This document shows, in pieces, positions 7,552 through 64,000 of a DNA stretch of 64,000 nucleotides; the first letter of the stretch is position 1; each line of letters opens with the position of its first letter. The DNA comes from Squalus acanthias. Taxonomy: Eukaryota. Under the pieces are notes generated by a model. The model ran no database searches. It saw only the letters and a program-made list of their open reading frames with translations, and was not told the origin of the DNA. The position numbers were made by a program, and so were the translations under genes. Where the stretch lies: positions 87,422,001 to 87,486,000 of the forward strand of contig CM059432.1 in assembly GCA_030390025.1 (NCBI GenBank), read 5' to 3'.

Positions 7552-9201
7552 GGCCAGTATTTGCCGATGCCTACGGGTGTGTACGGGCTGTGTACACACC
7601 CGTAGGGCCATCGGAAATGCCGGTTTCAAGCATGCGAAAAGCATGTGCTGAAAACCGGCATTTCCGATCTGTCAAAATGCTCTTGAGAGATCGCACGCCT
7701 GCCCTGGAGAAGGGCCTCTGCGGGGGGAGAGTTCCGCTTTCTGCAGAACCTCCGCCCGCAGAAAACCCTTAGAAATCTTACGCCTGGTAAAAGCAGGCGT
7801 AAGGCCTGCTTTTACCAGCATAAGAGTTGAAAAAAAGTTAAAAAAAAAAAAATGTTCTCACTCATTTATAATTTTAAAATACTTTTAAAAAAGGTAAGTT
7901 TATTTTTAGCCCCGTAAAAAACTTTAATTATTTTTTTCAAAAAATTAATCTTTTGTTTAAAATATTTAATTTATTGTTATTTTAACTCATTTTAAAAACG
8001 TGATTTAAAAAAAAATATTTAGGGGTAAAAATTCAGTTGGTTGCGCCTCCCGTTAGCGCCTTAAGAGGGCGCTAATGGGGCGCAAAGCCGCTGACGCCCG
8101 GGCGCAGCGATGTTTGCGCCGCTCGGGAACTTAACTTGACATTGTGCGGCGGCGCTAAAACTTACCGCTGCGACCACCTGCGCGCGCAGATTGTGACGTC
8201 ATTCCATGGTGCAACGCCCTTGTGGTGCCCCGGAGCGGAAATTGAGTGGCGCCCCCTGCCTTACCGCCTGGCGCATCCAACGACCAGAAGACTGGAACGC
8301 TATCAATCGCTGTGGGGCTGGGGGGGGCGCTATTTAAAGGGGGCCTCTTCCTGCCTTTTATTGTTGGTGGCATTTTTGAACTACGCATTCTGAGAGAGAG
8401 AGGGAGAGACTTCTGGAGAGATTCAACGTTGTGTGAAGGAGTTTTGGGTACTGAGCAGCACTTTGCAGGTTCATTTTGATTTGCCATTCCTTGTATCGAT
8501 TTAGCAGAGACTGTGGGAGCTGCACTCTGAGCTCTTTGCCTGGTACTCTCCATTGTTCTTTCCAGCACATTTGATGTGCAAGTCTCTCCAGGCCGAGATT
8601 CAAGGCTGCAATGAACAGGATGTGGATGGAAAGCAAGATTAACCATCCCCTTTAAGAACTGGCCCGTGCCATTGTGTGTGTGTTCCATTGCTGACTGACA
8701 TTACATGAGCTTCGCCAGCGCTCTGAGTTAGCGCCTCACTCCTTGGCCTTTGCGCCTTAAGACAGGTGTGCAGCGCCTGCTTTAGCGCTCCACTCACCTC
8801 CCGGGGCGGTAAAAGTGAAGTTTCCAGTCAGTGCCGATAATTAGCGCCAAGCGCTAATATTTGCGTTCAGACAATATTTGCGCCCCAAATGGGGCGCGAC
8901 CTAATTTTATTCCTTAATGTTTTAGTGTGTTTTTGGGGTGATCTCCATTCATATATTTGACAGGTCTGTCAAAAGTATGAAGGGAGATTCCCTTCTCCTA
9001 TTGGCTGGCCTGGCCCACGTGATCCCAGGGACGCTTGCGAACTGCATGCGCCCCTGGGATACCTGGGCCCTGCGCATTCCAACTTTGGAGAGGCCCAGGA
9101 GCGGAAGCGTTCGGACCTCGGGAGCCCTCAGGTAAGTTCGTAGATTTTTTTCCGATAGGAGGCATCCGCACGCAGGAAGCCTCCATCAGAAATTACGGGC
9201 C
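7552..9201 (+). mobile_element. Non-autonomous Harbinger-type element (family M1) containing a nested M2 copy
   Basis: TIRs GGCCAGTATTTGCCGATG / CATCAGAAATTACGGGCC; AAT TSD at 7549-7551 and 9202-9204; second copy at 60802-61485. Confidence 0.88.
8022..8913 (-). mobile_element. Non-autonomous Harbinger element (family M2) sharing both ends with the autonomous element 43610-47773
   Basis: Starts GGGGTAAAAATTCAG; TTA TSD; removing it restores TATTTAATGTTTT as in the empty M1 copy near 61212; inverted copy of 48036-48931. Confidence 0.93.
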
Positions 9202-12290: not shown

Positions 12291-12929
12291 ATGCCGGTGC
12301 CTATCGCGCCTCCACAGACAGCTTGCCCAACTGAAGAATCCAATTTTGGGCCATCTGCCTTGCTGGCAGCAGCCTTCAAATAAGTCCCGGGGTGGGGGAG
12401 TTGGAGGAAAGCTGGAGAGGGCCAATCGGGGTCAACTGCAACCAACAGGAGTGCTATGGAGCCGGGAGAAAGCACTACATCCACTTGTATGACCATAAAA
12501 CAGGCACAATGAGGTACAATTTCTACCCCAATAACTTCAGGAGAACTAAAAAGAAAATTGAAAAGAAACTTTACTTTTGTTCTGTCTTTTTCCCATACAA
12601 ATCAGTCTTTTCTCCCTATTATCTTTTCTTTCATATTCTCCAGTTTTACTTTATTTTACATTATTTCTGATCGATATGCAATGTCTTAACTTTCATTTTA
12701 CATTTATTCTTAATTACATCATGTGAATATTAAATGTACCTGTTGCCCTGTGCCTGTCGTGTGCCAGCATCCATTCTGAAGCTGGGACATACATGGATAA
12801 AATCTTCCTTTATTAAACCAACTGGGTCAGACTTATGATTTTGTGGGAGTCAATGTTGGCCATTCTGACAGAACGTGTCACAGCCTAGGAAGCTGAAAGC
12901 ATCAAAATAAGTATTCCCAACAGCAAACG

Positions 12930-24322: not shown

Positions 24323-24417
24323 CTAGTGGGGGGGAGGTTCCTAGAGAACAAATAATAAAAATGACAACAGAGAAGGTCATAGACTTAGGTAGCAGTGGGG
24401 AAATTTAAAACCAGAGT

Positions 24418-28047: not shown

Positions 28048-28281
28048 GTCTAGGTTCGGATCGGTCATGGCCCTGTGGGTAGCGTAGCGGGCCCAGGGGC
28101 CGTGTAACCTGATCCTGCTCCTATTTCGTGTGTCCAATTCTGTTAGGTTCAGGAGATTGTTCTGTGATAGTAGATTGGCGGTTAGGATCAGATCAGCCAT
28201 GATCTTATTGAATGGCGGAGCAGGCTCGAGGGGCCAATTGGCCTACTCCTGCTCCTATTTCTTATGTTCTTATGTTCTTAT

Positions 28282-32556: not shown

Positions 32557-33218
32557 GGGGGTAACTTCGCCGGGGCGCTAATTTTAGTGCCCCGAAAAAG
32601 TTAGCGCCCCCGCGGCCGATTTTCCCAGGTAGCGCCATGAGAGGGAGGAGGTGCGCTACTGGAAGCAAGGCAATATCGCGGCGCTATGTGCCGCAGGTAC
32701 TGCAGGCGTTCCTCCCCTTATTAAAGGGGAAGGGCCTGGCACAGCGTGTCCCGGTGCCCAGCTGGGCCACCAGGAATCGGGAGTGCCGGCAAATGAGTCC
32801 GGCACTCAAGAGGAGTGCTGGGCTCACGGAGAGCAGCCGGCACCCCGCGGGGGAACTTCACGGGGGCCGGGGACAGCAACGGGAGCAGGTGCTGGCAGGC
32901 GGCCAGCAACAAAAATGGCCGCCCGCCACCTCACCTTTAAATAGCGCTGCCCCGGCCGCAGGTAGGCCCCCCCGACCCCGGCAGACATAGCGTCCGGCGG
33001 TAAGTCGGGGGGTGCCACCCAATATTACAGCCGGGGCGTGAGCGGGGCGCTGCGTATGGCGATGACGTCATCGCCAGCGGCGGAGAGCCACCGCTAACCT
33101 CCCGCTGAATTTCGCGGGAGGCGCTAGCGGCGCCGCACCCAGGCGCTAGTTGATTTGCGCCCCGTTAGGGCCCTCTTAGGACGCTAACGGGAGGCGCAAC
33201 TCAACCGAATTTAGCCCC
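32557..33218. mobile_element. Non-autonomous Harbinger-type element (GC-rich family M4)
   Basis: TIRs GGGGGTAACTTCG / CGAATTTAGCCCC; CAA TSD; right end resembles 47720-47773; related inverted copy at 59448-60096. Confidence 0.85.
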
Positions 33219-33669
33219 CAAGGAACTTTAAAGTCTCACTCTTTCTCTTCTGGTATTCTAATGTTTGAGCATAATATTTCAATTAAATTGCCTTTTTTGG
33301 CATTTATTTTGGATTGTGCCTTTTTTTTCCATTGTGATATAATATTTCTACCATAACAATGTGTTGAATCTGTGCAATATTGTTGCTCATAGTTAAATGT
33401 GACTGCACAAGTGTCCTTAGTTGCCCTTGTTTTTCAAGAATCAGCACTGATAATTCCTAAGCCTTCTCTTGCACAGCTTTCTTTCCTGTTTCTAGAGGAA
33501 GCCTCCCTTGTTTTTCTCCTGAATCATCCTCTTGTGTCTGAATGATGTCATCTGAGGTCTGTGAGGACTGAACTATTTCAAATCCAACTGATAGATTCAA
33601 CTGTAAAATCCAAGGCAAATTGAAACAATCAGTTATAAAATCTTCAATAATTAATCTCTCCAGGGTAGA

Positions 33670-35620
33670 GTTGTGGTGAGGGGAGGGCGAAAGCAAGAGA
33701 TGCATGCTTACACCATGCGCAGCTTGTACATCAGAAGATATTGTGAGATGCGGGGGAAGTGGGATGTGAGAAGGAGGATAGCATATGAGGATACCAGCAT
33801 ATGCTGCCCCTGCCCAGAATGACCAGCACCGTCTCCTCCCAAGGGGGTAAAGTAAAGCTAGGAATGTGAGGTGTTCCTTGTGTTTGGTAGAGATTGTTGG
33901 TAGGTGAGTGATGGGCGGGGGGAGGGAGGGTCGTTGGTCGTGCATTGAGCAGTGTGTGAGGCTAGTGGCACAGTTGGTAGGAGAAGGCTTTTGAAGATGC
34001 ATTCACTGATCTTGACCACTGGTCTGAAGTCATGAAACTTCTTTGGACACTGGAGCCAGGTCCTGGGGGCAACACTGCTGGCAGTGACGGCCTCGGAGAT
34101 CTTTTTTAAAAATTCATTCCTGGGATGTGGGCATTGCTGGCAAGGCCAGCGTTTATTGCCCATCCCTAATTGCCCTTGAGAATGTGGTGGTGAGCCGCCT
34201 TCTTGAACCGCTGCAGTACATGTGGTGAAGGTACTTCTATAGTGCTGTTAGGGAGGGAGTTCCATGATTTTGACCCAGCGACGATGAAGGAACAGTGATA
34301 TATTTCCAAGTCAGGATGGTGTGTAACTTGGAGGGGAACTTGGAGGTGATGGTGTTCCCATGCACCTGCTGCCCTTGTCCTTCTAGGTGGTAGATTTGCG
34401 GGTTTGGGAGGTGCTGTCGAAGAAGCCTTGGCGAGTTGCTGCAGTGCATCTTGTAGATGGTACAGTCACGGTGCGCCGGTGATGGAAGGAATGAATATTT
34501 AAAGTGGTGGATGGTGTGCCAATCAAGCGGGCTGCTTTGTCCTGGTTGGTGTCGAGCTTCTTGAGTGTTGTTGGAGCTGCATTCATCCAGGCAATTGGAG
34601 AGTATTCCATCACACTCTTGACTTGTGCCTTGTAGATGGTGGAAAGGCTTTGGGGAGTCAGGAGGTGAGACACTCACCGCAGAATACCCAGCTTCTGACC
34701 TGCTCTTTTAGCCACAGTATTTATTTGGCTGGTGCAGTTAAGTTTCTGGTCAATGGTGACCCCCAGGATGTTGATGGTGGGGGATTCGGCGATGGTAATG
34801 CCGTTGAAATTCAAAGGAGGTGGTTAAACTCTCGCTTGTTGGAGATTGTCAATGCCTGGCACTTGTATGGGGCGAATGTTACTTGCCACTTATCAGCACA
34901 AACTTGAATGTAGTCTTGCTGTATGCAGGCATGGACTGCTTCATTATCTGAGGAGTTGCGAATGGAACTGAATACTGTGCACTCATCAACAAACATCCCC
35001 ACGTTTGACCTCATGATGGAGGGAAGGTCATTGATGAAGCAGCTGAAGATGGTTGGGCCTAGGACACTGCCCTGAGGATCTCCTGCAGCAATGTCCTGGG
35101 GCTGAGATGATTGACCTTCAACAACCAAAACCATCTTCCTTTGTGCTGGGTATGACTCCAGCCAGTGGCGAGTTTTCCCCCGATTCCCATTGACTTCAGT
35201 TTTACTGGGGCTCCTTGATGCCACACTCATTCAAATGGTGCCTTGATGTCAAGGGCAGTCACTCTCACCTCATCTCTGGAACTCAGCTCTTTTGTCCATG
35301 TTTGGACCAAGGCTGTAAAAAGGTCTGGAGCCGAGTGGTCCTGGTGGAACCACTCTGGTCCCACATTCTTCTTTCTGGATGGCCTCCCAGCCCTCTGTGG
35401 GTGCAGGACCTCTCTTCAACTTTTGACCTTTTGCACAAAGCTGGAGTGCTGCATGCGAGACCCTGGGTGCTCTTTCCCTGGCTCGTTGAGCCATTTCTGT
35501 TAGCGCTGAAGCTATTTTACAATTTTTTACATGCAGCAGGCAGTTCAGCTTTAAGAGCTGAAGTCGGCCTAGTTTGGGATGATTTTTAATGTTTTTTTCA
35601 GAAGGCAGTTCCCTTTTAAG
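33670..35620 (-). mobile_element. Harbinger Myb/SANT gene remnant split by a LINE
   Basis: MAQRARERAPRVSHAAL (35494) continues as ISEAVTASSVAPRTWLQCPKKFHDF (34100); homologous to 5830-6430. Confidence 0.8.
34103..35352 (-). mobile_element. 5'-truncated CR1/L2-group LINE (RT plus 3' end)
   Basis: GDPQGSVLGPTIFSCFINDLP..MFVDECT, IYKAQVKSVMEY. Confidence 0.85.
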
Positions 35621-38821: not shown

Positions 38822-39129
38822 ATTTTAAATAAAACTGTTGGACTATAACCTGGTGTTGTGCGACTTCTCATTTTTGTCCACCCCAGTCCAACACCGGCAT
38901 CTCCGCATCATGACATCCTGCTGCATGAGAGAGAGAGCGTGCTTACTCTTCGTGTGTTGGATGTTACATAGCTTTGCAATACAATGATTATTTTGGACAC
39001 CTTTGTTGAGAATGGAGGGACACCCAAATAGTCCAAATGGTGAGCTCCACAGTAATTCTGGTTGTTTTTCTAATTCTGTTCTTTTGTTATTTGGGGGTTT
39101 CTCATTAGGTTCATCAGCCATGGCTGCAG

Positions 39130-39600
39130 AGAATAGCCCTGGTCTGCTAACAGCTATCTGTTCAGTTTATTTAAGCCTTCAAGTAATACGGGCACAATGG
39201 ACTGCCGCATAATGAACCCATCATGGGTAATTCCTCGATAATGGGCATTTAGTTGCATTATGATGTTTCTGCTGTCAGACAATATCAGGATATTAAATGA
39301 ATGGAAACCTATTCTGTTCATATAGGCAACAGGATTGATGTAAGGAGCCCTGATGGCCATGCGGGAGCCATTTACTATGCCTTTGGACTTTTTTTTCAAA
39401 CCTTGCCAATTGGTGATACTTCTGTGCTGGTGCCTCCTGTAGTACAGTATTGCTCCTTGTAAGCATAGCGGCTATCACTTCCTTCATACCAGCTGGTCTT
39501 GCCGATTCCCCCTTGTGGTGGCTTGGAAGGATCCAAGAGTATAAATACTTAATGCGGTGGTAACCTTCGCAGATAGGGTTAGCTGTCCCTATGGTTGAAA
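39130..39600 (-). pseudogene. Old Harbinger transposase remnant
   Basis: MAIRAPYINPVAYMNRIGFHSFN...NAHYRGITHDGFIMRQS. Confidence 0.75.
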
Positions 39601-40498
39601 TTGTCTGTGGGTCAACTTGGAGCTCTGTGACAACCCCTGTGCTGAACTGGAGATGGCAAAGACTGATCTCTGATTTGTGAAAGCAGGAGCATTGAGGTGT
39701 TTAATGCAGGCCCTGATGGGTGTGGACATAATGGGGCAGGTTTTCCTGTTCTTGAACCTGGTTGTATTGGATTGCCTGGTTGCAGTGCAGAAAGGAGGAT
39801 CAGGTGAGCAGGACCACACGCACACACGTAAGGGAGCCTGCCTGGTTTTTCATTTGTTAATTTAAATGGACGGTAAACTCCCTGTCGAGCTGCTCACTGG
39901 CTTTCTGTAGCTGACATTGTGGTGTATTTTCCTCCGTTCACTAATGTTAGCAATAAAGTTCATGTGTGTGTAAAGAGTTTTTTTTCTATATTAGAAAATG
40001 GAGGAAAATATCAACTGTATGAGTCCTTGCAGAAGAGCGAGCCCAGAAATGACAAGTCTTCACCAGGAAGGAAAGAAGAATCAAACTACAAATATGTATT
40101 TTATCTCTTTTAACATTTTTTATCATACCTAAGTGAGGAGGAGTATGTTAAGGATTTTATAACTAGTGCTGTTCTCATATGTGCTTGCACCAAATTTCAT
40201 GGCATTAAACCAAATGCATTAAAAAGTACACAGCGAGATTTAGCACAAGTATGTCAAGCATTGTATGGGATTGGCACCAGTTAGAAAATATACCCCATAT
40301 TCCTTATCCAATAATCTTAAAGTCAAATTCCTATTATGTATTCCCTGGTTTTGCTCTTTTAATCTAGAAGAACACGAGGACCTGCTTATCTCACATGCAT
40401 CTTCATGATAAGAAAATAGTTAGGGGAAAAATTCATCCCCTTAGCTCCTCCCGTTAGCGGCAGCAGATGGTGCTAACGGGGCGCTAGAGCATTATCGC

Positions 40499-40531
40499 CG
40501 AGGCGAGGCGAGGCGAGGCGAGGCGAGGCGA
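40499..40531. repeat. (CGAGG)n microsatellite
   Basis: About 6.5 tandem pentamers. Confidence 0.9.
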
Positions 40532-43500
40532 ATCCAGCGCCACACGCTAAATCTCACAGCCCGTAACGCTGCCAGTCGCAGTTATCGCCGGGAGCCTCAA
40601 CGCCAGGTGGATCGTGACGTCAGTGAGTGTGCAATGCTCACTGAGCGCCCGATCTGCAAAATTGATTGTCGCCACCTACCTTAGCGCCTTGAGTAAACAG
40701 CGACAGGGAGAGTTGGCGTGAAGCAGCAGGAAGTCGGTTCCAGGGACGTTATTTAAAGAGATCATCAGTAATGAGCCGCAGCTGTAGGTTAGTGGAGTTT
40801 CAGCGGTTTCTTGTCAGTTTCACATAGTCCAACAGTTCCATTCAGTAATTTCAAGGTTATTTTGTATCAGGAGTGTTGTGGCAACTAAAAAGTAGCTACA
40901 TTTATTCTCAAAAAAATCTAACTGCTACACTTGGTTACATTAATGGGGGCTATACAGGTAGTCAACCTCGCCCTCCAGGATCTACGGCAGAGGAAGCGGA
41001 AGCAGCGAGAAAGACTGGAACATGTGCCCAGAGGGAGGAGGAGGGCCATCTGGGCTGTCAACAGGAGACCTTACCCTCCGAGGGTATTCCGAGAGCACTT
41101 CTCCTATCTCCAATTAAGCGAAGAGCAGTGTATTAGAAGGCTCACTTCACCAAGGAGGTGGTCACAGAACTCTGCCACCTCCTGCAACCAGACCTCCAGC
41201 CTCAGATCAGGGTGACCACAGCTCTCCCAGTGACAGTCAAGGTCACCGTTGCCCTCAATTTCTTCGCCAGCGGATCCTTCCAGTCTGCAACAGGAGACAT
41301 AGCTAACATCTCGCAGTTTGCCGTCAACTGCTGCATCCGGGAGGTCAGAGAGGCTCTCTACAGTAGGAGAAGGGGCTACATTTCTTTCCCCATCACCAGA
41401 GAGAATCAGGACAAGCGTGCATGTGGCTTTGCCAGGATAGCGGGATTCCCCTTGGTGCAGGGCGTGATTTACTGCACCCACGTGGCTTTGCGGGCACCGC
41501 ATAGCAATCCTGAGATCTTACGTAACCACAAAGGCTACCACTCACTTCATGTGCATTTGCTGTGTGACCACAGACAGCGAATCCTCAATGTCAATGCCCG
41601 CTATCCTGGCAGCAGTGGCTGCAGCAGGGCTGGTGGAAGGCTGCTGAGTGTCCGTACGGGAGACTTCAGATGGCCTGGCAGGACGCCCTTGACCAGCTCC
41701 AGGCCTGGAAGGCCCGGCTGTAGACTGCACCACCTCAGCATGGGCGGCAGCAGTCTGGGCTGGCTAGATGACAGGCAATGACAAGGGCAATGGCGGAGTG
41801 GCAGTGGTGGGAGCAGGAATGCTGTCATCCTGAGAGAGGACAGCAGCTTCCTGCTCCACTGACCCACTGCCACTCCCCTGGCGCAGCACCTCAGCATCCC
41901 TAGCAATCTGTTGGAGCACAGATTGCTGGCCTGCTGCGACAGCATGAAAGCCCCGGTCGATGGTGGTAGACCCAGCCATGGTGGTAGCAGTCAGAGCTTG
42001 CGTGGCATCAAGCTGAGATTGCATGCGAGCAGTCTGAGATTGGAAGCCACCAACCATAGACTGCATTCAGAACTAAGACATTGCATCGCTTCTGCCTGTG
42101 CTGCAATAGAAGCTGCCAGATCGCCCATCACACGCAGCACTAGGTCTGGGTTGCCAGTCTCTCTGGGAGTCCACCATCCTTTGCAGACTGGAAATGATGG
42201 GCTCCATGGTGTGCACAGAGCCTTGTGAAATGTTGGAGGCGGACTCCTCCACACTCATTGCCATTGCACCTATCATCTCGGTGTGCATGCCCATCACCCT
42301 TCTTCTAAAGCCTCCCCATCGAGGTCCTCATCTGAGTCCTGTGCCGCAGAACTCGCGCGCGAACGCACCCTCCAGGGAGCTGGCCCCCGAGCTACCCTTT
42401 CCCCCTGGCCTTGCTGCAGCCCACTCGTCCCCGGTGCCTCACCCTGTGCAGATCCCACTACTATACTAGCCTCTAAAAAATGCGTAGTGCCAGTATCTGA
42501 GCTGGTGCCTGCGGGTGAGACATGCAGTGACGCGGTGTGTTCTTCCTCCTCCGCTTCTCGCGCCTCGCTCTCAACGGTGCCCTCAAGGACAGGCTGCTCA
42601 GGTGCTTGCTCATCATCTGAAAGTTTAAAGGCACAAGAGTCGGGTTAAGGAGAGGGGAGGGGGGCAGGAAGGGAGAAATGCATGCATACAGCATGATTAG
42701 CTGGAAAGTGCGAATCGCTTGTGGGGTGAGGGGGAAGTGGGATGTAAGAAGAAGGAGTAGGGATGAACATACCGTTGTTGTCCCCAATGGGGTCAACGTC
42801 GCTGGTGGCCACGGCGCCCACCACCTGGTGCCCAATAATCTGCAGAACTCTATTCTCCAGCGCAGACAGTGGTTGGGTGTTGGCTTGTCCCCTGCCTGTG
42901 CGTTCCTGCTCCCTCTTGTTGTGAGCCACCTTGGCCTGCAAGAGAAAGGAAAGTGTGTGAGTGAGTGTGGAGCAATGTGTTTGGGTGATGTGCCTGTCAT
43001 AATTGAATAGCTGTCATTGTGTGCAAAGTGTGAGATGTGGGTATGAGATTGTTGGTGAGTGAGTGCTGGGGATGTGGTGCTCTGGGCAGTGTGTGAAGAT
43101 TGTGGTAGAGATGGTGGTATGTAGCATTTGTTGAAGCCTTCACTCACCCTAACCACCCGAGTGAGGTCATTAAATTTCTTCCTGCACTGTGTGTGGGTCC
43201 TGGGGACCACAGTGCTGCCCGAGATGTGCTGCGCTTGCTCCTTCCATATGGTTCGGAAGACTTGCGGCGAGGTCCTCCTGCCAGTTGCCGGGTAGAGCAC
43301 CGCCCTCCGTCCCTCCACAGCGAACACCAAAGCCTCCAAAGCTTGATTGCAGAATCTGCGAGTTCTCTCCCTGGGGTGTGGATCTGCCATGAGTACAGCT
43401 GCTTGAGTCATCCGGCTCCTTCTACTTGCCCTGCTTCTGCTTGCTGAGGCTGCTGCACAGCCAGCAATGCTGAGAATGAGGTTACAGCAGCATCAATAAA

Positions 43501-43968
43501 CCTCCCCTTTAAATACTGAAAAAAGCCTGTGGCAATGATGGCTTGCGATTAAACTGCACCCGATATTGGTCCATCCTTTGAATGTAACGCCAATGAGCTT
43601 GGGCTTTAAGGGGGAAAAATTAGGTCGCGCCCCATTTGGGGCGCAAATATCGTCTGGACGCAAATATTAGCGCCTGGCGCTAATTATCGGCACTGACTGG
43701 AAACTTCACTTTTACCGCCCCGGGAGGTGAGTGGAGCGCTAAATCAGGCGCTGCACACCTGTCTTAAGGCGCAAAGGCCGAGCAGTGAGGCGCTAACTCA
43801 GCGCGCGAGCGCAGCGCAGCTGCTGCCAGTTAGCGAGGGAACACAGACACACTGGCGCTGGCCAGTTCTTAAAGCGGGGGGGGCCAACTTGCTCCCCAGC
43901 CACACCCTGCTCATTGCAGCCTTGAATCTCGGCCTGGAGAGACCTGTGAATCCATTTTGCTGCCAAGG

Positions 43969-45788
43969 ATGGAGAGGGTGAGAGAACGAGCTCATCGCTT
44001 CACCGAGCGGGCCTTGGATGCTCTGGTTGGCGCGGTGGAGCGCAGAAGATGTATACTCTTCCCTGAGAGTGGCAGGAGGCCTTTGCCACGCGAGTTCAGA
44101 AGAGTGCGGAGGGAGGTGGCTCAGAGCGTCTCCTCCAGGAGCATGGTGCCCAGGACCCATACTCAATGCCGCAAAAAGTTCAACGACCTCACTCTGGTCG
44201 TCAGGGTGAGTGGCTTTTTCTCAATACCTCTCCATCCCTCCATCTCAACCTCACTCTATGGCCAGAGGGTCTTAAAACCCCAATGCACAACACTCATCCA
44301 ACACCTATGGCCCTTTCATGAAACACACACACACATTCCACACTTTGCATACAGTAAGGGCTATTCACCTATGGGAGGCACATCAGGCAAGACCATGGCT
44401 GCATACAGTAAGGGCTATTCACCTATGGGAGGCACATCAGGCAAGACCATGGCTGTATATTTACTCAGATGCTGTCCTTTTTCTTACAGGCCAAGCTGGC
44501 GCATAATCGGAGACAGCAGCAACGGACAGGTGGAGGGCGGCCTCAGCTGCAACCCCTCAGCGATCTTGAGGAGTGCGTCCACAGGATTGTGGCAAGCCGG
44601 GTGATCGGTCCCGTCGCCACTGGAGACGCCGACCCCGTTCTGGACAGCAATGGTAAGGTCATCACCTTTTTGTCCTCTGTCCTTCCACTTGTCCCTCACA
44701 ACACCAGCCTTTGACACTTTCAATCCAACTTGCTAACTCGCTGCACTTATTCCTCCCTTACTGCCACCCTGTCCTCACGCTAAAGCCACTCTTGTACCTC
44801 CCTGCTTTCAGATGGTGATTCACCAGCTGAGGAGACGGGCCCTGAAGCTGCCACTGGGAGTGATGCTGCAGCTGAGGAGGAAGAGGAAGCCGGAGCATCA
44901 GTGCCAGCCTCTCCCGAGGAAGCCCATGCCCACACTGGGAACACGCCTTCCCTGGAGGGGAGCAGGGGGGAAGGGTCTGATGAGGGTGAAGCTCCAGGAC
45001 CCAGCGGGCTGCAGCAACGCCATGGGGGTAGGGAAGAACGGGGGCCTTCTCCCCAGAGGGAGAGTATGCCAGACACTCCTACTGCAATGGACGCAGAGGA
45101 GGAGCGGCTGATCGCAGAAATGAACACCCAGGCGGTGGGCATGCACACTGAGCTCATGGGTGCAGTGGGAAGGGTGCCCGAATGCATTGAGTCACTGGCA
45201 AGGAGTGTGGAGCACTTCGCTGTAGCACAGGCGGATGCCACACTAACGCTTAGTGCTGCAATTCAGTCACTGGCTGCCGTGATCCCATCTCTGACTGCTC
45301 TCATGCAGACTCAGATTGAGGCCACGCGAGCACAGACTGCTGCCAACCTCGATGGTTCGTTCACATGTCCCTGGGGCTGTCACCGCGCCGCAGCAGGCCA
45401 GCAATCTGTTCTCCAGCAGATTGCTTCGGATGCTGAAGTGCTGCCCCATGGGAGTGCCAGTGTGTCGGGCGAGCAGGGAGTTGCTGTCCTCTCTCACGAT
45501 GACAGCATTCCTGCTGCCAACACTGTCACTTCTCCACTGCACTTGCCACCGCCTGTAGGACAGACTGCTGCCGCCCATGCAGAGTTGGTGCAGTCTGCAG
45601 CCGGGCCCTCCAGGCCCAGAACTGGTCGAGGCCGTCCTTCAGGGGCATCTGCAGTGTCAGGGTCTGACGAGCAGCAGCCTTCCACCAGCCTTGCTGCAGC
45701 CACTGAGGTCCCATTACGGAGGAGCAGTAGGGTTAGAAGGGGGGAAGTGCGCAAGGGAAGGAGATCACCCTCGAAGGGCAAAAAGTAG
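43969..45788 (+). CDS. Harbinger Myb/SANT-like DNA-binding protein; exons 43969-44205, 44490-44652, 44812-45788 (458 aa)
   Basis: GT-AG introns in phase 0 and 1 join into a stop-free frame; RFTERALDALV...TQCRKKFNDL, RTGGG motif, basic C-terminus. Confidence 0.88.
44346..44453. repeat. 54-bp tandem duplication in Myb intron 1
   Basis: TGCATACAGTAAGGGC...AAGACCATGGC twice. Confidence 0.9.
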
Positions 45789-46100
45789 GAGGTGTGACAA
45801 AATGCTGGTCATTTTTTTATTAAAGGTCGAGGTTCATGGTCCAACTTTTGTTTAGTGTTTTGGACATTATCTCCAGGTTGTGAGAACCAGTTATGTTATT
45901 GACTGTTTTTTTGTGTTTATTTCTATGAGTTTGTCATGAGGAATTGACACACACAGAGTTTGTAAAATAAATAAGTTTCTGTATTCAAAATATACATGGT
46001 TGGTGGTTGGAATTATTGGTGCCTTGGCCGGCTTAGGGGTTGCGTGCTGGGTTCATTAATGTTGTTAGCAATGGCAGAAGCCATTTCCACAGCAGGGGCC

Positions 46101-47261
46101 CTAGAAGCGGCTTGCTATTAGCCGTTGACGGACGGCCCTTGCAGTTTCACCATTGTGGGCCGCCCTCCCGCCTTGGTGCTGCTGATGATCATCCTCCTCG
46201 TCCTCTTCCTCCTCTTCCTCCTCCTCCTCTGGTGGTGCTCCAAGGCCTGGTGGCATTGGCTGGGTCCTGAGGATTGCCATGTTATGCAACATGCAGCACA
46301 CGACTACGAAGTTGGATACTCGCTCAGGCGAGTACTGCAGGGCTCCTCCAGAATGGTCGAGACAGCGGAACCGTTGCTTCAGCACGCCGATTGTGCGCTC
46401 AATTATGTTCCTGGTAGCTTGATGGCTCTCATTGTACCGCAGCTCAGCAGGGGTGTTGGGCGTACGGAGCGGTGTCATCAGCCAGGTGCTCAATGCATAC
46501 CCCTTGTCCCCGAGAAGCCAACCAACTGGCTGATGCGGTGCCTCGAAAAGTTCTGCCACAGTAGTCTGGCGCAGGATAAAAGCATCGTGGCAGCTGCCAG
46601 GATAGTGGGCATTGACAGCAAGTATCAGCTGTCTGTGGTCACAGACCAACTGAACATTCAAGGAATGGAACCCCTTTCTGTTCCGGAATTCCTCGGCATT
46701 CTCATGCGGAGCACGCAAAGCCACATGCGTGCAGTCAATGGCGCCCTGCACCATGGGGAAGCCCGCTACCCTCGCAAAGCCCAGAGCGCGGTCACGCTGC
46801 TTGTCTGGGGTCATGGGGAAAGAGATGAACTCTCGTCTCCTTTTAAAGAGGGCATTTGTGACCTGCCGGATGCAGCAATGCACCGCGAACTGGGAGATAT
46901 TGGCGAGGTCCCCAGCAGCAGCTTGAAATGAGCCAGTAGTGTAAAAGTTGAGAGCCACTGTGACCTTCACTGCCACCGACAGAGACGTCCTGGACCTCAG
47001 TTGAGGCTGCAGATCTGGCTGCAGCAGGTGGCAGAGCTCAGTGACCACCTCCTTGCTGAATCGCAGCGTTCGCAAACACAGCTCCTCAGACATATGAATG
47101 TAGGAGAGCTGTTCACGATATATCCTGGGAGGGTAAGCTCTCCTGTACATACGCCTGTTGGCCCTCCTCCGTCTGGCCATCATTGCCACTCTCTCTCTGC
47201 GTCTCTGTATCCTCCGATTCAGCTGGAGCAGGACGACGCCCCCAATCAGTGCAGCCCCCAT
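46101..47261 (-). CDS. Harbinger (HARBI1-like) DDE transposase, 386 aa from the first ATG
   Basis: Open frame with GAIDCTH, NRKGFHSLNVQ, PGSCHD, LLGDKGY, RNIIERTIGVLKQRFRCL, CCMLHN. Confidence 0.95.
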   Translation of the reverse strand: MGAALIGGVVLLQLNRRIQRRRERVAMMARRRRANRRMYRRAYPPRIYREQLSYIHMSEELCLRTLRFSKEVVTELCHLLQPDLQPQLRSRTSLSVAVKVTVALNFYTTGSFQAAAGDLANISQFAVHCCIRQVTNALFKRRREFISFPMTPDKQRDRALGFARVAGFPMVQGAIDCTHVALRAPHENAEEFRNRKGFHSLNVQLVCDHRQLILAVNAHYPGSCHDAFILRQTTVAELFEAPHQPVGWLLGDKGYALSTWLMTPLRTPNTPAELRYNESHQATRNIIERTIGVLKQRFRCLDHSGGALQYSPERVSNFVVVCCMLHNMAILRTQPMPPGLGAPPEEEEEEEEEDEEDDHQQHQGGRAAHNGETARAVRQRLIASRF

Positions 47262-48035
47262 ATTCTCTTTGCAAGCAAAGTAATGAAGGACAGCAACTAA
47301 AGTACCAGCGAAGTTAGGATCAGTAGGCAAAACTACCTCACAAAGCGTTGAATCAATGCAGAAGTCTCTCTTTCTCTCTCTCCGAATCTCTCTCTCTCTC
47401 TCAGAACGAGTGGTGCAAAAATGTCGACCACAGAAAAAGACAGGAAGAGGCCCCCTTTAAATAGCGCCCCCCCCCAGCCCCACAGCAATTGATAGCGTTC
47501 CAGTCTTCCAGTCATTGGATGCGCCAGGCGGTAAGGCAGGGGGCGCCACTCAATTTCCGCTCCGGGGCGCCACAAGGGCGTTGCACCATGGAATGACGTC
47601 ACAATCTGTGCGCGCAGGTGGTCGCAGCGGTAAGTTTTAGCGCCGCCGCACAATCTCTAGTTAAGTTCCCGAGCGGCGCAAACATCGCTGCGCCCGGGCG
47701 TTAGCGGCTTTGCGCCCCATTAGCGCCCTCTTAAGGCGCTAACGGGAGGCGCAACCAACTGAATTTTTACCCCATAGACTTGAATTAGGACTCCAATCAT
47801 TTTTTTGAGCAGCGAGCACGAATTTTGCGTGCAGTCTAAAGCATTAGCACCTGGCACTAATTCTCCAACTTTTCTACTGATACCGCCCATTCCGGGGCTA
47901 TAATGAATTTGTAGCCCATAAAGTCTTTAGCTAGTCATTTTGGCTGATATCCCACTGAGGCAGGGAATGCTTTCTAGGCTTTTTCAAACATTTCTTGTGG
48001 ATATTGGGGTACACCCACATGGCGACAGACATGTG

Positions 48036-48931
48036 GGGGTAGAAATTAGGTCGCGCCCCATTTGGGGCGCAAATATCGTCTGGACGCAAATATTAGCGCC
48101 TGGCGCTAATTATCGGCACTGACTGGAAACTTCACTTTTACCGCCCCGGGAGGTGAGTGGAGCGCTAAAGCAGGCGCTGCACACCTGTCTTAAGGCGCAA
48201 AGGCCGAGGAGTGAGGCGCTAACTCAGAGCGCTGGCGAAGCTCATGTAATGTCAGTCAGCAATGGAACACACACACAATGGCACGGGCCAGTTCTTAAAG
48301 GGGATGGTTAATCTTGCTTTCCATCCACATCCTGTTCATTGCAGCCTTGAATCTCGGCCTGGAGAGACTTGCACATCAAATGTGCTGGAAAGAACAATGG
48401 AGAGTACCGGGCAAAGAGCTCAGAGTGCAGCTCCCACAGTCTCTGCTAAATCGATACAAGGAATGGCAAATCAAAATGAACCTGCAAAGTGCTGCTCAGT
48501 ACCCAAAACTCCTTCACACAACGTTGAATCTCTCCAGAAGTCTCTCCCTCTCTCTCTCAGAACGCGTAGTTCAAAAATGCCACCAACAATAAAAGACAGG
48601 AAGAGGCCCCCTTTAAATAGCGCCCCCCCCCCCAGCCCCACAGCGATTGATAGCGTTCCAGTCTTCTGGTCGTTGGATGTGCCAGGCGGTAAGGCAGGGG
48701 GCGCCACTCAATTTCTGCTCCGGGGCGCCACAAGGGCGTTGCACCATGGAATGACGTCACAATCTGCGCGCGCAGGTGGTCGCAGCGGTAAGTTTTAGCG
48801 TCGCCGCACAATCTCAAGTTAAGTTCTCGAGCGGCGCAAACATCGCTGCGCCCGGGCGTTAGCGGCTTTGCGCCCCATTAGCGCCCTCTTAAGGCACTAA
48901 CGGGAGGCGCAACCAACTGAATTTTTACCCC
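48036..48931 (+). mobile_element. Non-autonomous Harbinger element (family M2)
   Basis: GGGGTAGAAATT / AATTTTTACCCC; GTG TSD; ends nearly identical to 43610-43800 and about 47430-47773. Confidence 0.95.
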
Positions 48932-54945: not shown

Positions 54946-56191
54946 ATGGGAACCATTTATTTTCTTTCCTCCTGGACCTCAGATTCGGACGAAGACCAGC
55001 CGCAGCAGCAGCAGAACCCGGAACAACAGCAGCACCAACAGCAGGAGCAACAACAGGTGCGCCAACCTGCTGCTCACCCACCTGAAGCTGCACAGGCCAG
55101 AAGGCGCCAGCGCAGGGAAGCACGTCGCTGCAGGAGATACCCCCAAAACAGGGTTTACAGACAGAGGATGAGCTACCTCAACATGACTGAGCAGCAGTGC
55201 CAAAGGAGGCTCAGACTTTCGCGAGAGGTAGTGGGTGACATCTGTGCAGTGCTGCAGCAAGACCTGGAGCCCAGAGGAGCGGGTGGACACCCCTTACCAG
55301 TGGCCGTCAAAGTCACCACCGCACTCAACTTTTTTGCTTCAGGCTCATTCCAGGGATCAACAGCAGACATCAGCGGCATCTCCCAGGCGGCCGCACACAC
55401 CTGCATCACGCAGGTAACCGATGCCCTCTTTGCCAACGCGCACAATTACATCAACTTCTCTAAGGATCGAGCAAGTGTAACCGCGCGTGCGGTTGGATTT
55501 GCTAATCTGGCAGGCTTTCCAAGGGTGCAGGGCGTCGTTGACTGCACACATGTGGCCCTTAAGGCACCCCATCACAATCCAGGTATTTTTGTCAATCGCA
55601 AGGGCTTCTACTCCCTCAACGTGCAGCTTGTGTGTAACCACAATAAGGAAATTTTGCATGTTTGCGCCAAGTACCCTGGCAGTTGCCATGACTCCTTCAT
55701 CCTGCGGCAGTTTAGTGTTCCTCTGCTCTTCGGTCTGCCAGACCAACTTTGCGGATGGCTACTTGGAGACAAGGGCTATCCCCTGAAGACGTGGCTAATG
55801 ACGCCGTTGAGGAGCCCATCCAATGAAGCTGAGGAGCGCTACAACTCCAGCCACATTTCCACCAGATCCATAATCGAGCAAACTGAAGATGCTGAAGATG
55901 CGATTCAGATGCCTTGATAGATCAGGTGGAGCCCTGCAGTACTCAGCAGCCAGGGTCTCCAGAATCGTCGTGGTCTGCTGTGCACTTCACAACATGGCAC
56001 AGCATCGTGGCTTGCAGCTGCCTGAGGTAGAAGTGGCTCATCGCATAGCCTCCTCAGATGAGGATGAGGAGGAGGAGGAGGAGAGCGACAATGAACAGCT
56101 TGCGGAGGCGCATCAACCAGCGGCAGCAGCACGTGAGCACATTGCTGCCCGGGATGCAAGGGATGCACTCATCTTGGCCAGATTTGCTTAG
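54946..56191 (+). pseudogene. Harbinger transposase with a single frameshift near 55883
   Basis: GVVDCTH, LLGDKGY, RSIIEQT, then a shift to MLKMRFRCL...CCALHN; CTGAAGATG is duplicated at the break. Confidence 0.9.
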
Positions 56192-56449
56192 CCTGCTCAA
56201 TCAAACACATTTGCCCTGCACCTTCTTACCACACCATCGACAATGGGCAAGAACCTGCGGCTTCCTATCACTCTGACCACTATACTGACAATTGGAAGTC
56301 ACCCTAAGCCCTCAATTTGGGAGTCCCATTTGCGAAATGACACAGCCCACAACTTCAACAGTTTGCCATCAAGTTATTTTATCACATAAATTCACGGATG
56401 GCTTTTCAAAAATAAACACAACAGAACACCCAAGTGACTACCCTTGCGA

Positions 56450-58457
56450 CTACTTGTGCTTTATCTTCCTCTTACGCGTGCTCCTACGTGGTGCTTCCCC
56501 TGTGGCTTCAGCAGATGTGGAGACCCCTTGCTCACTTTCTTGCTGCTCCTGCCTCGACACCTTTGGTGGGCGTCCTCTGGGGTTGTGAGCCTGTGAGGGC
56601 TCGGCAACAGTCTGCTGCTCCTGCGGCTGTGCAGGGGCTGAGACGCCGATCTCAGTTGGGTGAGGACTCTGGTGGGGCTCTGACCGAGGGCTCTGCAGTG
56701 GCATGGTCGTGTGAGCGCTTGGAGAGGAGTCCCCACTTCCTTGTTCTCTGCCACCAACATCCCTCTCATGGGTCAGCCCCACTTCAAAGCTAGCAAGTGG
56801 CTTGACAGCACCTTGCTGCACTTCACAGGGGCCATGAGGACCCGTTTCTGCACTGTAATTCCTACTCCAGAGGACTTCCATGAAGGTCTGGTTTCTCTGC
56901 TCAATAGCTGACCATTGCTCCTCAAGAGATGTAAGTCTATTCTGAACAATGACCATGTTTTCAAGACTCTGGCGACTAAGCTCCTCCATGGCCGTAGCCA
57001 TCCTCTCCTCTACTGTAGCCATCCTCTCCTCTACGGTAGCCAGCCTTACCACGGAGATAGCCATCCTTTCCACGGAGGTTGCCATCCTTTCCGTGGTGAT
57101 GCGTTCATGCGCCACTGCCTCCACAAAGGCTCTGCTCATGTTAGCGATGGACTCCTCCATTCGCTCCACACTCGCAGCGACCCTGGAGACAAAACCTGCC
57201 AGAGACTCCTGCACCTGTTCCTGGAGTTCCAGCACCGCTCTCCTTCTGGATGGACCTGGAGGCACAGGGTCGACATGCAGCTGAGCCGAGCTGGGAGAGT
57301 CCTGCGCCCTCCGACGAGGACTCTCCACTGCTGTCCCTGTCTCCACCATCTGCTGATGCTCACTTGTGAGCTGTGATACACCAGGTGACAACACTACTGT
57401 ATGTCCCGAAGGTCCCACCGAGGTGTGAGTGTCTGCGCTGGTGCTGGGTGCGCTTAATTCTGCTGACGCTGCGCCCTCAGAGGTTGCAGCTTCCTCTGAG
57501 GAGTCTGGTGGCTCAGGCTGTTCCTCCTGAACAGTGGGGAGGGGGGCTGTCGATGGTCCTGTGCGGGAGTAAAGGAAAGAGTTAGGCATGTGAGATAAAC
57601 GTTGCATACACATTGAATTATGCAGATTATCATAAGTCAATCTGTTACAGCATTAGAATCAAGATCAGTCACTCATGCAATGTCAATGAGAGAGATAAAA
57701 AACTATTCTGTCACCAGCTTGCTCTGATGCACCCATCTGTCCGTCCCCCACTTGCACATCCTCCTCCACTCCCATGATCTCCAGGGCTGCCTCCTCTGCA
57801 CTGGTGAGCTGGCCTATTGAGGGTGGCCGTCCTCCTGTCCTCGCCCTTTCCCTCTTATTGTGGGTTCTCTTTTCCTGCAATGAGGGTCACAAGTGGAGTT
57901 TGAGTGAGAATGAAGGAGTGAGTGTAGACAATCCATAGCATAGATGCTTAGAAGGACACAAAGATGGAGTGAGGTCCCAAGACCAAGGGCCCTCCCTGTG
58001 TGTTGTAAGTTGTTGTCATAGCATCACAGTGATAGGAAGTGTGAGGGCTGCATAGTCGAATAGTTAAGTGAATGTGAACATACAGAGAGAGGGAATGGTT
58101 AAGGGTGCAGGGATGTAAGGGTCAAGTGGGATGTGGAGGAGGACGTTGACAAAGCAGAGTGCTGGTGAGGAGAGGCGATGGGGATCAGATTGAGGGTGAT
58201 GGGAACGGAATACTCACTTTTCCTGTGCGGAGAAGGTCATGAAATCTCTTTCCGCACTGCAGCCAGGTTCTGCTGCACATTGAAATGGCACTGACCTCCT
58301 GTGCCACTTGCAGCCACACAGCTTTGGTCTGTTGGGGAGGTTTTATCCTCCCAGAAGAAGGAAACAGCACTTGCTTATTAGCTCTTGCTCCCTCCACCAG
58401 AGCTTGGAGGGAGTCCTCATCAAAGCGGGGTGCGCACTTGGGTCTTGAGCTTGCCAT
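56450..58457 (-). CDS. Harbinger Myb/SANT-like protein; exons 58457-58218, 57874-57715, 57558-56450 (502 aa)
   Basis: GT-AG introns in phase 0 and 1 give a stop-free frame; APRFDEDSLQALV...RTWLQCGKRFHDL, RTGG, heptad repeats, RRSTRKRK tail. Confidence 0.85.
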
Positions 58458-59447: not shown

Positions 59448-60096
59448 GGGGGAAAAATTGGGTTGCTTTGCGCCTGGGTGCGGCGCCGCAAACGCCTCCC
59501 GCGCTATTCAGTGGGAGGTTACCGCCGGTGGTAGCTTGTAGCACCCCATGGTGCTGCGCACGGTGATGACGTCATCGCCGTGTGCAGCGCCCCGGCCGCA
59601 AACTTCAGTTGCGCCCCCTGACCTATTGCTGGACGATATGTCCGACAGGGTCAGGGGGTGTTTTTGCGGCCGTGGCCGCGCAAATTAAAGGGCAGGTGCC
59701 AGGTGGCCATTTTTTTTGGGCCGCCTGCCAGCACCTGCCCCCTTTTGTCTCCTCAAGTGGGGTGCCGGCCACGATCGGTCAGCCCGGCACTCCTCTTGAG
59801 TGCCGGGCTATTTTCCTGGCACCCCGTTCCCCAGTGGTCCAGCAGGGCCCCGGTGCGGCCCCTCCCCTTTAATCAGGGGAGGGAGGCCTGTAGTACCGCG
59901 GCGCAACGTGCCGGCGCGCATGGCTCTGTTGCACGTAGCGCTGCGATATTGAATGGTAGCGCCCCAGGAAGGAGGGGGAGCGCTTCCAGTAGCGCCCCGC
60001 CTCCTGCTTGGGGTGCTACCCCTCAATTTACGGCGCGGGGCGCTAACTTGTTCGGGGCACTACGCCCCAAAGGGGGCGCGACCAAATTTTCCCCCC
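59448..60096. mobile_element. Non-autonomous Harbinger-type element (M4-related)
   Basis: GGGGGAAAAATT / AATTTTCCCCCC; splits CR1 EEDT|SLQ; imperfect TSD. Confidence 0.85.
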
Positions 60097-63150: not shown

Positions 63151-64000
63151 GATGGGTGGCACCATGGCTGCCTTAGATTAGACCTCGGACAAGGAGCAAG
63201 ATGACCATCAGCAGCAGCAATAGCCTGCTGTGGAGAGAGCTGTAGGTTGTCAGCACAGATGGGAGCAGCAGCAGAGGGGTCGAGGTCGTAGGAGGCACTA
63301 CCCATGTAACATGGTGTTCAGGCAGAGGCTCAGCTTCCTTGACTTCTCAGAAGAGCAGTGCTTCCGGAGGCTGAGGTTGTCATGTCAGGTGGTGGCAGAC
63401 ATCTGCAGCCTCCCAGAAAAAGATCTGTTTCCTGCTGGACCTGGCAGCCACACATTACCAGTGGTTGTGAAAGTGACCACTGCTCTCAACTTTATTGCCT
63501 CCCAGATTTTTCCAGAGCGCTACCAGAGACATGGCCAGGATCTCCTAGTCGGCTGCACATAAATGCATAAGGCAGGTGACTGATGGGTTATTTGCCAGGG
63601 CCGACAATTATATCAATTTCGCCTGTGATGACACTAGTCAGAATGAGTGGGCGCCCGAGTTTGTGTCTCTGGCTGGCTTCCCGCAGGTGCACGGCATTGT
63701 CGACTGCACACATGTGGCAATCTGCACATCCCTCGATCAACCAGGAGTATTCGTAAACCGCAAGGGATTCTATTCAACCAATGTTCAGTTGGTGTACAAC
63801 CACAACAAAAGGCTTATGCAGGCATGCGCAAAATTCCCTGGGAGCTGCCATGACGCTTTCATCCTGTGGCAGTCCAAGCTCCCCAATCTACAATCAGACT
63901 TAATGGGTGGCTGCTAGGAGACAAAGGATACCTACTTCAAACTTGGCTGATGACACCAGTGAGGAACCCCACCAATGAAGTCCAGGAGCGGTACAATGAA
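63151..64000 (+). pseudogene. Harbinger transposase pseudogene (runs off the window)
   Basis: FRQRLSF..RLRLS, GIVDCTHVA, NRKGFYSTNVQ, PGSCHD, LLGDKGY; stops and frameshifts. Confidence 0.9.

Follow-up and report, generated by a model that had tools for sequence, protein, structure and literature searches.

A full-length, probably decaying copy of an abundant elasmobranch PIF/Harbinger-type family

Introduction

The two proteins of the Harbinger superfamily, a Myb/SANT protein and a DDE transposase, bind each other. Harbinger3_DR from zebrafish is a reconstructed element (PMC2836001; PMC3016246; PMC9392472), and natural copies have been described for Harbinger-Snek of the sea kraits, with 269 apparently intact copies in Laticauda colubrina and a single one in L. 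laticaudata. In the L. laticaudata copy RNA reads cover the two genes, and horizontal transfer was reported for the family (PMC8437027). Within the PHIS groups, target site duplications (TSDs) are given as TWA for PIF/Harbinger, CWG for NuwaI and C|TNA|G for NuwaII, and 88 PIF/Harbinger and 11 NuwaI families were classed as potentially active because both of their ORFs were intact (Han et al., 2015; PMC4482050). Harbinger is reported as absent from the elephant shark, in a survey that called for other cartilaginous fish to be analysed (PMC9179366). A literature search that did not extend to most subscription journals, Repbase or Dfam yielded no study in which a native vertebrate copy was assayed and none dedicated to the Harbinger families of elasmobranchs.

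Here we describe a 4,164-bp PIF/Harbinger-type element with two convergent genes, located at 43610..47773 of a 64,000-nucleotide stretch of the Squalus acanthias genome (hereafter the window). An initial annotation had presented it as a potentially active two-component Harbinger and considered a naturally intact copy to be of biological and tool interest, the characterised vertebrate example having been reconstructed from a consensus; apparently intact, transcribed vertebrate Harbingers are, however, already published (PMC8437027), which weakens that premise. We consider it probable that the locus is a full-length insertion of an abundant elasmobranch family in which decay of this particular copy has begun. 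The anatomy of the element, its nesting, its 3-bp target, its abundant near-identical relatives, the residues specific to this copy and their conservation are observed, whereas the loss of Myb function, the identity of the binding sites and the age are inferred.

Results

Structure and insertion site of the element

Both terminal inverted repeats (TIRs) are where the initial annotation had placed them, at 43610..43621 (Myb end, forward strand) and 47762..47773 (transposase end, reverse strand); they are 12 bp long, differ by one mismatch and, as in PHIS elements, are short and start with G, the termini reading GGGG. The insertion site was resolved with contigs from four of the 23 listed sequencing runs (X2, X7, X11 and X12). 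Empty-site joints from 43608 to 47776 (14 contigs in X2, three in X7 and one in X11) omit 4167 nucleotides, i.e. the 4164 of the element plus 3, and hence the TSD is 3 bp long, with TAA (43607..43609, forward strand) as the target triplet. These empty sites are read as paralogous, the host being itself a repeat from which an orthologous empty allele is indistinguishable. At the right-hand TSD position (47774..47776, forward strand) the main copy displays ATA instead of TAA and so lacks the perfect duplication expected of a fresh insertion. All three insertions examined in the window gave triplets, namely TAA (main copy, left), TAA (M2a) and GTG (M2b), the last two being the short derivatives described below.

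The element is nested in an older, decayed Harbinger. To the left this host occupies 40423..43609, with a frameshifted transposase on the forward strand from 40943 and a Myb gene on the reverse strand from 43392; to the right its remaining end covers 47777..47880, a limit that is approximate and was placed from the empty-site joints and a drop in depth near 47885.

The element has two subterminal arrays of the motif GCGCWAA, six copies in both orientations on the left (43641..43796; 0.32 expected) and five on the right (47637..47742; 0.34 expected). None of 2000 first-order Markov simulations reached six on the left, none of 2000 reached five on the right, and a search of the element body found no copy of the motif. 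These arrays are most likely the sites bound by the Myb protein. The observed/expected CpG ratio is high only in these motif-rich ends (0.90 and 1.04). It amounts to 0.56 over the whole element, against 0.45 for the window, and to 0.40 in Myb exon 3, equal to that of the Myb region of the decayed neighbour; the high CpG retention noted initially therefore applies to the ends, and we dropped it as a sign of youth elsewhere.

Two open genes with altered conserved residues

The Myb/SANT gene lies on the forward strand and comprises three predicted exons with GT-AG introns, which together encode a stop-free protein of 458 amino acids. Exon 1 (43969..44205; 79 codons) carries the trihelix domain, scoring 25.3 bits against PF13873 (cut-off 21.7); predicted exon 2 (44490..44652) has AG/GT borders and keeps the frame, and predicted exon 3 (44812..45788) encodes an acidic low-complexity region and a basic C-terminal tail, with AATAAA at 45966. 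The splice model is a prediction, and is supported by homologues that read through its first junction. The transposase is encoded on the reverse strand by a single exon with an open frame (46101..47261; 386 amino acids) and belongs to DDE_Tnp_4 (PF13359; 136 bits against a cut-off of 24.8; E=1e-39). With its TIRs, its transposase and a second, separate trihelix gene as in PHIS elements, the identification as a two-component Harbinger stands. Both genes had also been called intact, which holds for their reading frames but not for conserved residues at which they differ from the family.

Foremost among these is codon 47 of the Myb gene (44107..44109, forward strand), which reads Arg in this copy and Trp in the family. 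At 44107 the family letter accounts for 100% of the depth in all four runs (63 contigs in X2, 26 in X7, two in X11 and seven in X12). A search among longer proteins returned one Myb homologue and a representative library 33, of which 32 were aligned (P0129 was omitted, its match spanning only residues 3-39); Trp occupies this position in 31 of the 32, the exception resembling a spurious helical match. In the structure model of exon 1 (three long helices, pLDDT 84.5) residue 47 lies in the middle of the helix formed by residues 40-56, and the conserved aromatic core of the domain is incomplete in this copy. The best fold matches of the domain are the Zeste DNA-binding domain and the GT-1 trihelix, both weak (TM about 0.7, E>0.001), and a search of solved structures with the Myb sequence to place Trp47 gave no match. 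A second difference, Leu in place of Arg at codon 76 (44194..44196, forward strand), falls in the last helix of the domain, the family letter representing 0.98 of the X2 depth and Arg being present in 26 of the 32 homologues. The conservation of these residues suggests that the Myb protein of this copy would have lost its function or its DNA binding.

The initial annotation had already cautioned that exon 1 reads RVRREVA where relatives have a Trp (TIWKEQA, AVWLQVA). The letters were correct, and the loss of Trp proved to be specific to this copy, and divergence from the consensus at essential residues is the first of three signs that the annotation had itself named, taken together, as evidence against activity. 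That the copy is nonetheless naturally autonomous and active, the Trp-to-Arg change being tolerated, would agree with its complete anatomy and open frames, with the near-identity of the inner parts of M2a and M2b (see below), which points to fairly recent work of the family machinery, and with a model of the Arg-bearing domain that is still a trihelix, though the alignment that shapes this model consists of relatives with the Trp. Against this stand the Trp in 31 of 32 homologues, the second altered Myb residue, the neutral-looking spectrum of changes, the imperfect TSD and an Arg allele at zero depth in four of four runs, from which it follows that the copy has left no abundant progeny. We regard activity of this copy as very improbable, and its description as potentially active is not upheld.

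In the transposase the acidic residues D176, D226, D252 and E288 are all present. The alignment places D176 at 46736-46734, D252 at 46508-46506 and E288 at 46400-46398 (reverse strand), with conservation among homologues of 97/117, 92/114 and 77/117 respectively; the second Asp of the catalytic triad we take to be either D226 or D252. The structure model (pLDDT 86.5) matches TnsB, piggyBac and integrases weakly, and solved structures yielded no match by sequence and none by fold at E<=0.001. Its best database match, from Pristiophorus japonicus, is 66% identical over 90% coverage; no database protein exceeded 66%, and the family is not represented there. Codon 65 (47067..47069, reverse strand) encodes Thr in this copy and Arg in the family, whose letter makes up 100% of the depth in four of four runs; 74 of the 93 homologues with a residue at this position have Arg. 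Three near-fixed nonsynonymous transposase differences occur among the variants listed, R65T and the mild changes V47I and A108T, with Thr at position 108 in 15 of 108 homologues. A236, where 89 of 114 homologues have Pro, may be private to the copy or family-wide.

Because conserved residues of both proteins are substituted, the copy is most likely non-autonomous. Its ends look competent for mobilisation in trans. One could also suppose that only the Myb gene is defective and that the transposase still functions in trans with the Myb protein of other copies, as the four acidic residues are in place and two of the three near-fixed transposase changes are mild; a split of the two functions between elements has been suggested for a Harbinger family of Caenorhabditis inopinata (10.64898/2026.05.26.728016), and solo-ORF variants are reported in sea kraits (PMC8437027). 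R65T and A236, both at positions conserved among homologues, and private changes that bear no sign of purifying selection speak against such a half-functional copy, which we judge unlikely.

Abundance of the family and decay of the copy

The element is an interspersed, multi-copy repeat. At 90% identity or more, 49,322 X2 contigs matched the stretch, and 10,147 did so at 99% or more, whereas the unique flank was covered by one contig at a depth of 10. Dividing the lowest listed site depth by 31 and by 10 gives at least about 400 copies, and one contig with a depth of 25,000 (possibly a ceiling) against the flank depth of 10 gives about 2,500; summed contig depth is not copy number, and both values are orders of magnitude only. 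The family is thus abundant, at a rough hundreds to thousands of copies, and of low divergence, the two properties whose verification the initial annotation had proposed. Among the 23 listed runs, 19 (seven organism codes and one blank) contain 0.48-0.78 of the words. In X12 (organism E) the host element, the raised ends and the element appear in proportions like those of X2 and X7, at very low depth, a pattern suggesting that this run contains DNA from the shark itself or a near relative, and not that one element was transferred; horizontal transfer is unsupported by the four runs examined. Contigs of X11, guessed to be RNA, cross intron 2 (44641-44835) and the border of exon 1 with intron 1, cover both element ends and include one empty host site, and no splice joint was found among 15 of its 44 joints; X11 behaves like DNA and is silent on expression either way. 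A domesticated host gene of the HARBI1/NAIF1 type was also considered and is ruled out by the TIRs, the target duplication and the high copy number.

The copy lies about 0.25-1% from the family, long contigs differing from it at 17 of 1673 positions (X11) and 17 of 1862 (X12). Among 40 of 262 variants, 32 of them inside the element and together a partial, non-random sample, ten differences are near-fixed in the family (at least 0.94 in X2), comprising eight nonsynonymous, one synonymous and one non-coding change. Eight nonsynonymous out of nine coding differences are consistent with neutrality (P=0.21), and variants segregating among family copies of the transposase were four synonymous and one nonsynonymous (P=0.026 under neutrality), the contrast between private and segregating transposase changes being non-significant (Fisher test, P=0.21). 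The nonsynonymous-rich differences of the copy would fit neutral decay. Retention of both frames, the four splice sites, the catalytic residues, both TIRs and the 11 motifs counts against decay. Open frames are, for their part, expected at this divergence, as the probability of no stop across the frames is 0.8 at 0.3% divergence and 0.48 at 1%, indels being ignored. With a rate of 7e-10 per generation, measured in another shark species (PMC10587355), ten differences in 4164 bp would correspond to about 3.4 million generations (range 1.7-17), an estimate that borrows a pedigree rate, ignores the faster decay of CpG and may count differences that predate the insertion. At shark mutation rates a copy diverged by 0.25-1% would not be young.

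Assembly errors in an otherwise family-like locus would also produce damaging letters, and at 44107 and 47068 the letter of the window has zero depth even in X2, a run that includes a contig agreeing with the unique right flank over 150 of 150 positions. Contigs do, however, drop rare or single-copy variants inside high-copy repeats, so the missing Arg allele proves neither that the change is single-copy nor that the assembly is free of error at this site. At the other eight near-fixed sites the letter of the window is seen at some X2 depth, four of the ten changes are of the CpG-decay type, a biological signature, and the flank is without errors; assembly error is accordingly a highly improbable source of the changes.

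Short derivatives sharing the ends

Two non-coding relatives, M2b (48036..48931, forward strand; 896 bp; TSD GTG/GTG) and M2a (8022..8913, reverse strand; 892 bp; TSD TAA/TAA; left TIR eroded), retain both ends and both promoter regions. Overall they are 97.98% identical, and their inner parts match at 177/177 and 166/167 positions, so the machinery of the family worked fairly recently. The near-identical ends noted initially are borne out, the outer ends of M2b matching the element at 188/192 and 327/340 positions (96-98%). The inner parts are only 67-76% like the element and have no match in the host Harbinger, by which we rejected a direct deletion product of either one; as the initial annotation had proposed, M2 is a deletion derivative of a predicted sibling element that shares near-identical outer ends with the family. 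Its supposed Myb-like start, MESTGQRAQSAAP, is such for the first nine codons only, SAAP being the antisense of a transposase start, and the string thus spans the deletion junction (near 48423/48424 in M2b). Loose ends of M2 type occur at 43947 in 37 X2 and seven X7 contigs. M2 is non-coding, multi-copy and homogeneous in size, with shared ends and a 3-bp TSD, like Tourist-like MITEs; at about 895 bp it exceeds the usual MITE size.

It is conceivable, if doubtful, that the family, as distinct from the main copy, still has native, working two-gene copies that transpose in the shark lineage today with M2 as a passenger; the same tentative reading would make M2 the core of an older sibling with ends of the current family.

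Discussion

We return to the reading that we prefer, a full-length insertion with decay begun. As is established for the superfamily, the Myb/SANT protein would bind the DDE transposase and carry it to the nucleus and to the element ends, where it would recognise repeated subterminal motifs on both sides, here most likely the GCGCWAA arrays. The transposase would cut at the GGGG termini and insert the element at a 3-bp target whose surroundings are weakly palindromic, and non-autonomous derivatives with the same ends, such as M2, would also have been moved by the family. The copy described here presumably inserted at TAA near the end of the older Harbinger and then accumulated unselected substitutions. 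In the Myb trihelix, Arg took the place of a nearly invariant Trp and a conserved Arg was replaced in the last helix; in the transposase, a conserved Arg of the N-terminal helical region was exchanged as well.

The copy itself is of little weight, since many insertions lie as near to the consensus and this one can probably not move itself; it may be seen as an ordinary new member of an abundant Harbinger family, elsewhere in which a working copy is possible. It does show that two open ORFs plus TIRs overstate activity in slow-mutating genomes, where millions of generations pass before frames are interrupted. The family is of modest weight, in that the superfamily is here abundant and of low divergence in an elasmobranch genome and that many sharks and rays have annotated relatives. 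Were the family active, it would provide a native, non-reconstructed vertebrate Harbinger pair and a recent, large elasmobranch Harbinger burst, and an active full-length copy bearing the Trp would be a native two-component transposon targeting a short motif, which would have some value as a tool and in structural studies.

Among described systems, Harbinger3_DR and its non-autonomous partner Harbinger3N_DR share with this locus two genes, short TIRs, a 3-bp target and a partner with the same ends, a likeness of features. They differ in their target, reported as CWG in a 15-bp palindrome (here TAA, TAA and GTG), and in their origin, since the element described here occurs in nature with changes of its own and is not a consensus. 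Harbinger-Snek is likewise a high-copy vertebrate family with full-length, solo-ORF and short non-autonomous forms (PMC8437027); unlike in Laticauda, transfer is unsupported here and relatives occur across many sharks and rays. The PHIS groups (PMC4482050) agree in their two ORFs, a length of about 4.1-4.5 kb, TIRs of <60 bp starting from GGG and a 3-bp TSD; judged by their sequence, the TSDs found here do not point cleanly to a single group. M2 resembles Tourist-like MITEs such as mPing (PMC2836001) in being non-coding, with both ends kept and 3-bp TSDs, and differs from them in its greater length, its two promoter regions and its mosaic make-up of ends at 96-98% and inner parts at 67-76%. 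Also close are elasmobranch proteins annotated as 'putative nuclease HARBI1' (Pristiophorus japonicus, the best match at 66%, and many more in Heptranchias, Heterodontus, Scyliorhinus, Carcharodon and rays) and, for the Myb protein, as 'myb-related transcription factor, partner of profilin-like' (43-58% among the top matches). The automatic name HARBI1 suggests the host gene, whereas the locus described here is bounded by TIRs, shows a target duplication and exists in many copies.

Structure of the element and its insertion site

The PIF/Harbinger-type insertion at 43610–47773 (4,164 bp) carries 12-bp terminal inverted repeats (TIRs), with one base different between the two ends, and two convergent genes separated by AATAAA signals on both strands. 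The transposase ORF (47261–46101, minus strand) is a single exon of 386 amino acids that matches DDE_Tnp_4 (E = 1e-39), and all four acidic residues (D176, D226, D252 and E288) were kept in an alignment with 120 homologues. Its alignment-based model (pLDDT 86.5) gave weak fold matches to TnsB, piggyBac and retroviral integrases. The transposase 5′ leader (47262–47345, minus strand) has, immediately before the ATG, a GT…AG stretch that is possibly a short intron of the UTR. The Myb/SANT partner gene, on the plus strand, is predicted to have three exons (43969–44205, 44490–44652 and 44812–45788) with GT-AG introns and a stop-free spliced product of 458 amino acids. Exon 1 encodes the Myb/SANT domain, modelled as three long helices, and the nearest folds were the Zeste and GT-1 DNA-binding domains (TM ~0.7, E > 0.001). 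GCGCWAA, a putative binding site of the Myb protein, occurs six times in the left 250 bp, five times in the right 330 bp and nowhere in the body; either end's count was reached in 0 of 2000 simulations. Intron 1 contains a 54-bp tandem duplication (44345–44452; 53/54 identical), and contigs of two public sequencing runs, X11 and X12, both end at 44375, suggesting that this duplication is not private to the copy.

The insertion lies close to one end of an older, decayed, multi-copy Harbinger (40423–43609 plus 47777–47880) with a frameshifted transposase. The host also has an internal deletion, as its transposase gives way to Myb-gene sequence near 41620. Contigs from three runs pass directly from 43608 to 47776 with a single TAA, leaving out 4167 bases (the element plus 3); we attribute these empty sites to further copies of the host. 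At the element's own locus the right triplet reads ATA, and the target duplication is thus imperfect.

The copy compared with its family

The initial annotation proposed an intact and potentially active two-component Harbinger. Its frames, TIRs and catalytic acidic residues are indeed kept, but potential activity is not supported once this copy is compared with near-identical relatives in the sequencing runs, and that comparison decides the matter. Myb codon 47 opens at 44107, where the Trp-giving letter made up all the depth in four of four runs, and Trp occupies the corresponding position in 31 of 32 aligned homologues; Myb W47R is therefore private to this copy or to a very small lineage, which bears out an early caveat about a missing Trp in exon 1. 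The comparison covered 40 of 262 variant rows, 32 of these 40 within the element, and among the latter 10 near-fixed differences were found in run X2. From family to copy, these comprised W47R, R76L, R108C, P166A and R321W in the Myb protein, V47I, R65T and A108T in the transposase, one synonymous and one non-coding change. Conserved residues are again affected at Myb residue 76 (Arg in 26 of 32 homologues) and transposase residue 65 (Arg in 74 of 93). Eight of the nine coding changes are nonsynonymous, compatible with neutral drift (P = 0.21), and four of five transposase variants segregating among family copies are synonymous (P = 0.026); the direct contrast of private with segregating changes did not reach significance (Fisher P = 0.21). 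At this divergence, open frames are to be expected. Indirect support for a functional reading of W47R comes from two papers, one terming aromatic residues essential (PMC9392472) and the other describing a single substitution in the Myb-like fold of rice ORF1 that left no detectable excision (PMC2836001). This copy is thus probably non-autonomous through private decay.

The copy has diverged by no less than 10/4164 (0.24%), a figure that rises to about 1% when long contigs are the reference. At the epaulette shark mutation rate of 7e-10 per generation (PMC10587355), 0.24% corresponds to about 3.4 million generations (1.7–17 over the interval of that source), a crude figure that is probably too old, since CpG sites mutate more quickly and the insertion may be younger than some of the changes. 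The estimate argues against a fresh insertion. The high CpG retention first noted holds for the element ends only (observed/expected 0.56 for the whole element vs 0.45 for the window).

Abundance of the family

The element's top homologues were all shark or ray proteins (best 66% identity), which points to an elasmobranch genome as the most likely source. Of 23 listed runs, 19 contained 0.48–0.78 of the sampled words. At ≥90%, 49,322 X2 contigs mapped to the stretch, whereas the unique flank had a single contig (depth 10). Though depth is no copy number, this suggests a family of hundreds to thousands of copies. In X2 and X7, depth over the element ends was ~2.5–2.7 times that over the body; full-length copies are therefore no more common than end-only derivatives. 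The family is abundant and of low divergence, and is a better target than this copy; it may include working copies, a prospect we consider rather unlikely.

M2 and other derivatives

Two non-autonomous elements, M2a (8022–8913, minus strand; target duplication TAA) and M2b (48036–48931, plus strand; GTG), are 97.98% identical overall and match at 343 of 344 positions in their inner parts. Their sequence contexts agree with the motif A-N-N-Y/R-N-N-T at four of four positions (that of the element at three). As first reported, M2 ends are nearly identical to those of the element: the outer ends of M2b match at 188/192 and 327/340 positions, falling to 137/180 and 130/195 further in, and this sharp step points to a recombinational exchange of ends in M2 or its parent. 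Derivation from a sibling element was likewise correctly proposed, the centre of M2 being a junction at which the first nine Myb codons of a sibling run straight into the start of a sibling transposase in antisense, which makes M2 a deletion derivative. M2 retains the region equivalent to the transposase 5′ leader. M2-type loose ends were found in 37 X2 and 7 X7 contigs. Joints from 43883/43889 to 47313, in low-depth contigs, mark a rarer direct internal-deletion derivative of the element's family (~740 bp), distinct from M2.

Other repeats in the window

The window contains the remains of several Harbinger families. A two-gene relic at 55138–58427 (transposase on the plus strand, 58% identity, frameshifted near 55883; Myb gene on the minus strand) keeps the Trp in its Myb gene; further transposase relics (33–57% identity) lie at 12919–13839, 39079–39582 and 63314–64000, and Myb relics at 5962–6671 and 34011–34130. 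The end of Myb exon 3 (45672) was joined to different upstream sequence, resembling the relic at ~6570 (6554–6632), in 110 X2, 26 X7 and 14 X11 contigs, and a conserved C-terminal 'QQPST' stretch is common to the element's Myb protein and a sibling family. Two short elements (59448–60095 and ~32560–33220) with related G-rich termini and GCGC-type subterminal motifs are probably non-autonomous Harbingers of sibling families. A long inverted pair (2012–5371 and 24172–28281; 98–99% identity over several kb) resembles two recent insertions of a putative LINE.

Comparison with known systems

Open-licence literature yielded neither a study of elasmobranch Harbinger families nor an assay that used a native vertebrate Harbinger. 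Harbinger is described as absent from elephant shark by authors who want more cartilaginous fish examined (PMC9179366). Transposition needs both proteins and Harbinger3_DR was rebuilt from consensus (PMC2836001; PMC3016246), in agreement with the initial annotation. Apparently intact vertebrate copies are, however, already in print: PMC8437027 counts 269 in Laticauda colubrina, as well as one in L. laticaudata that is covered by RNA reads. Pleurodeles has an expanded, transcribed Harbinger set (PMC5741667), and 88 plus 11 families across eukaryotes have been termed 'potentially active' (PMC4482050). A spontaneous Harbinger insertion is reported in a nematode (10.64898/2026.05.26.728016), and the insect Spy element provides a native tool from the PHIS superfamily (PMC11304231).
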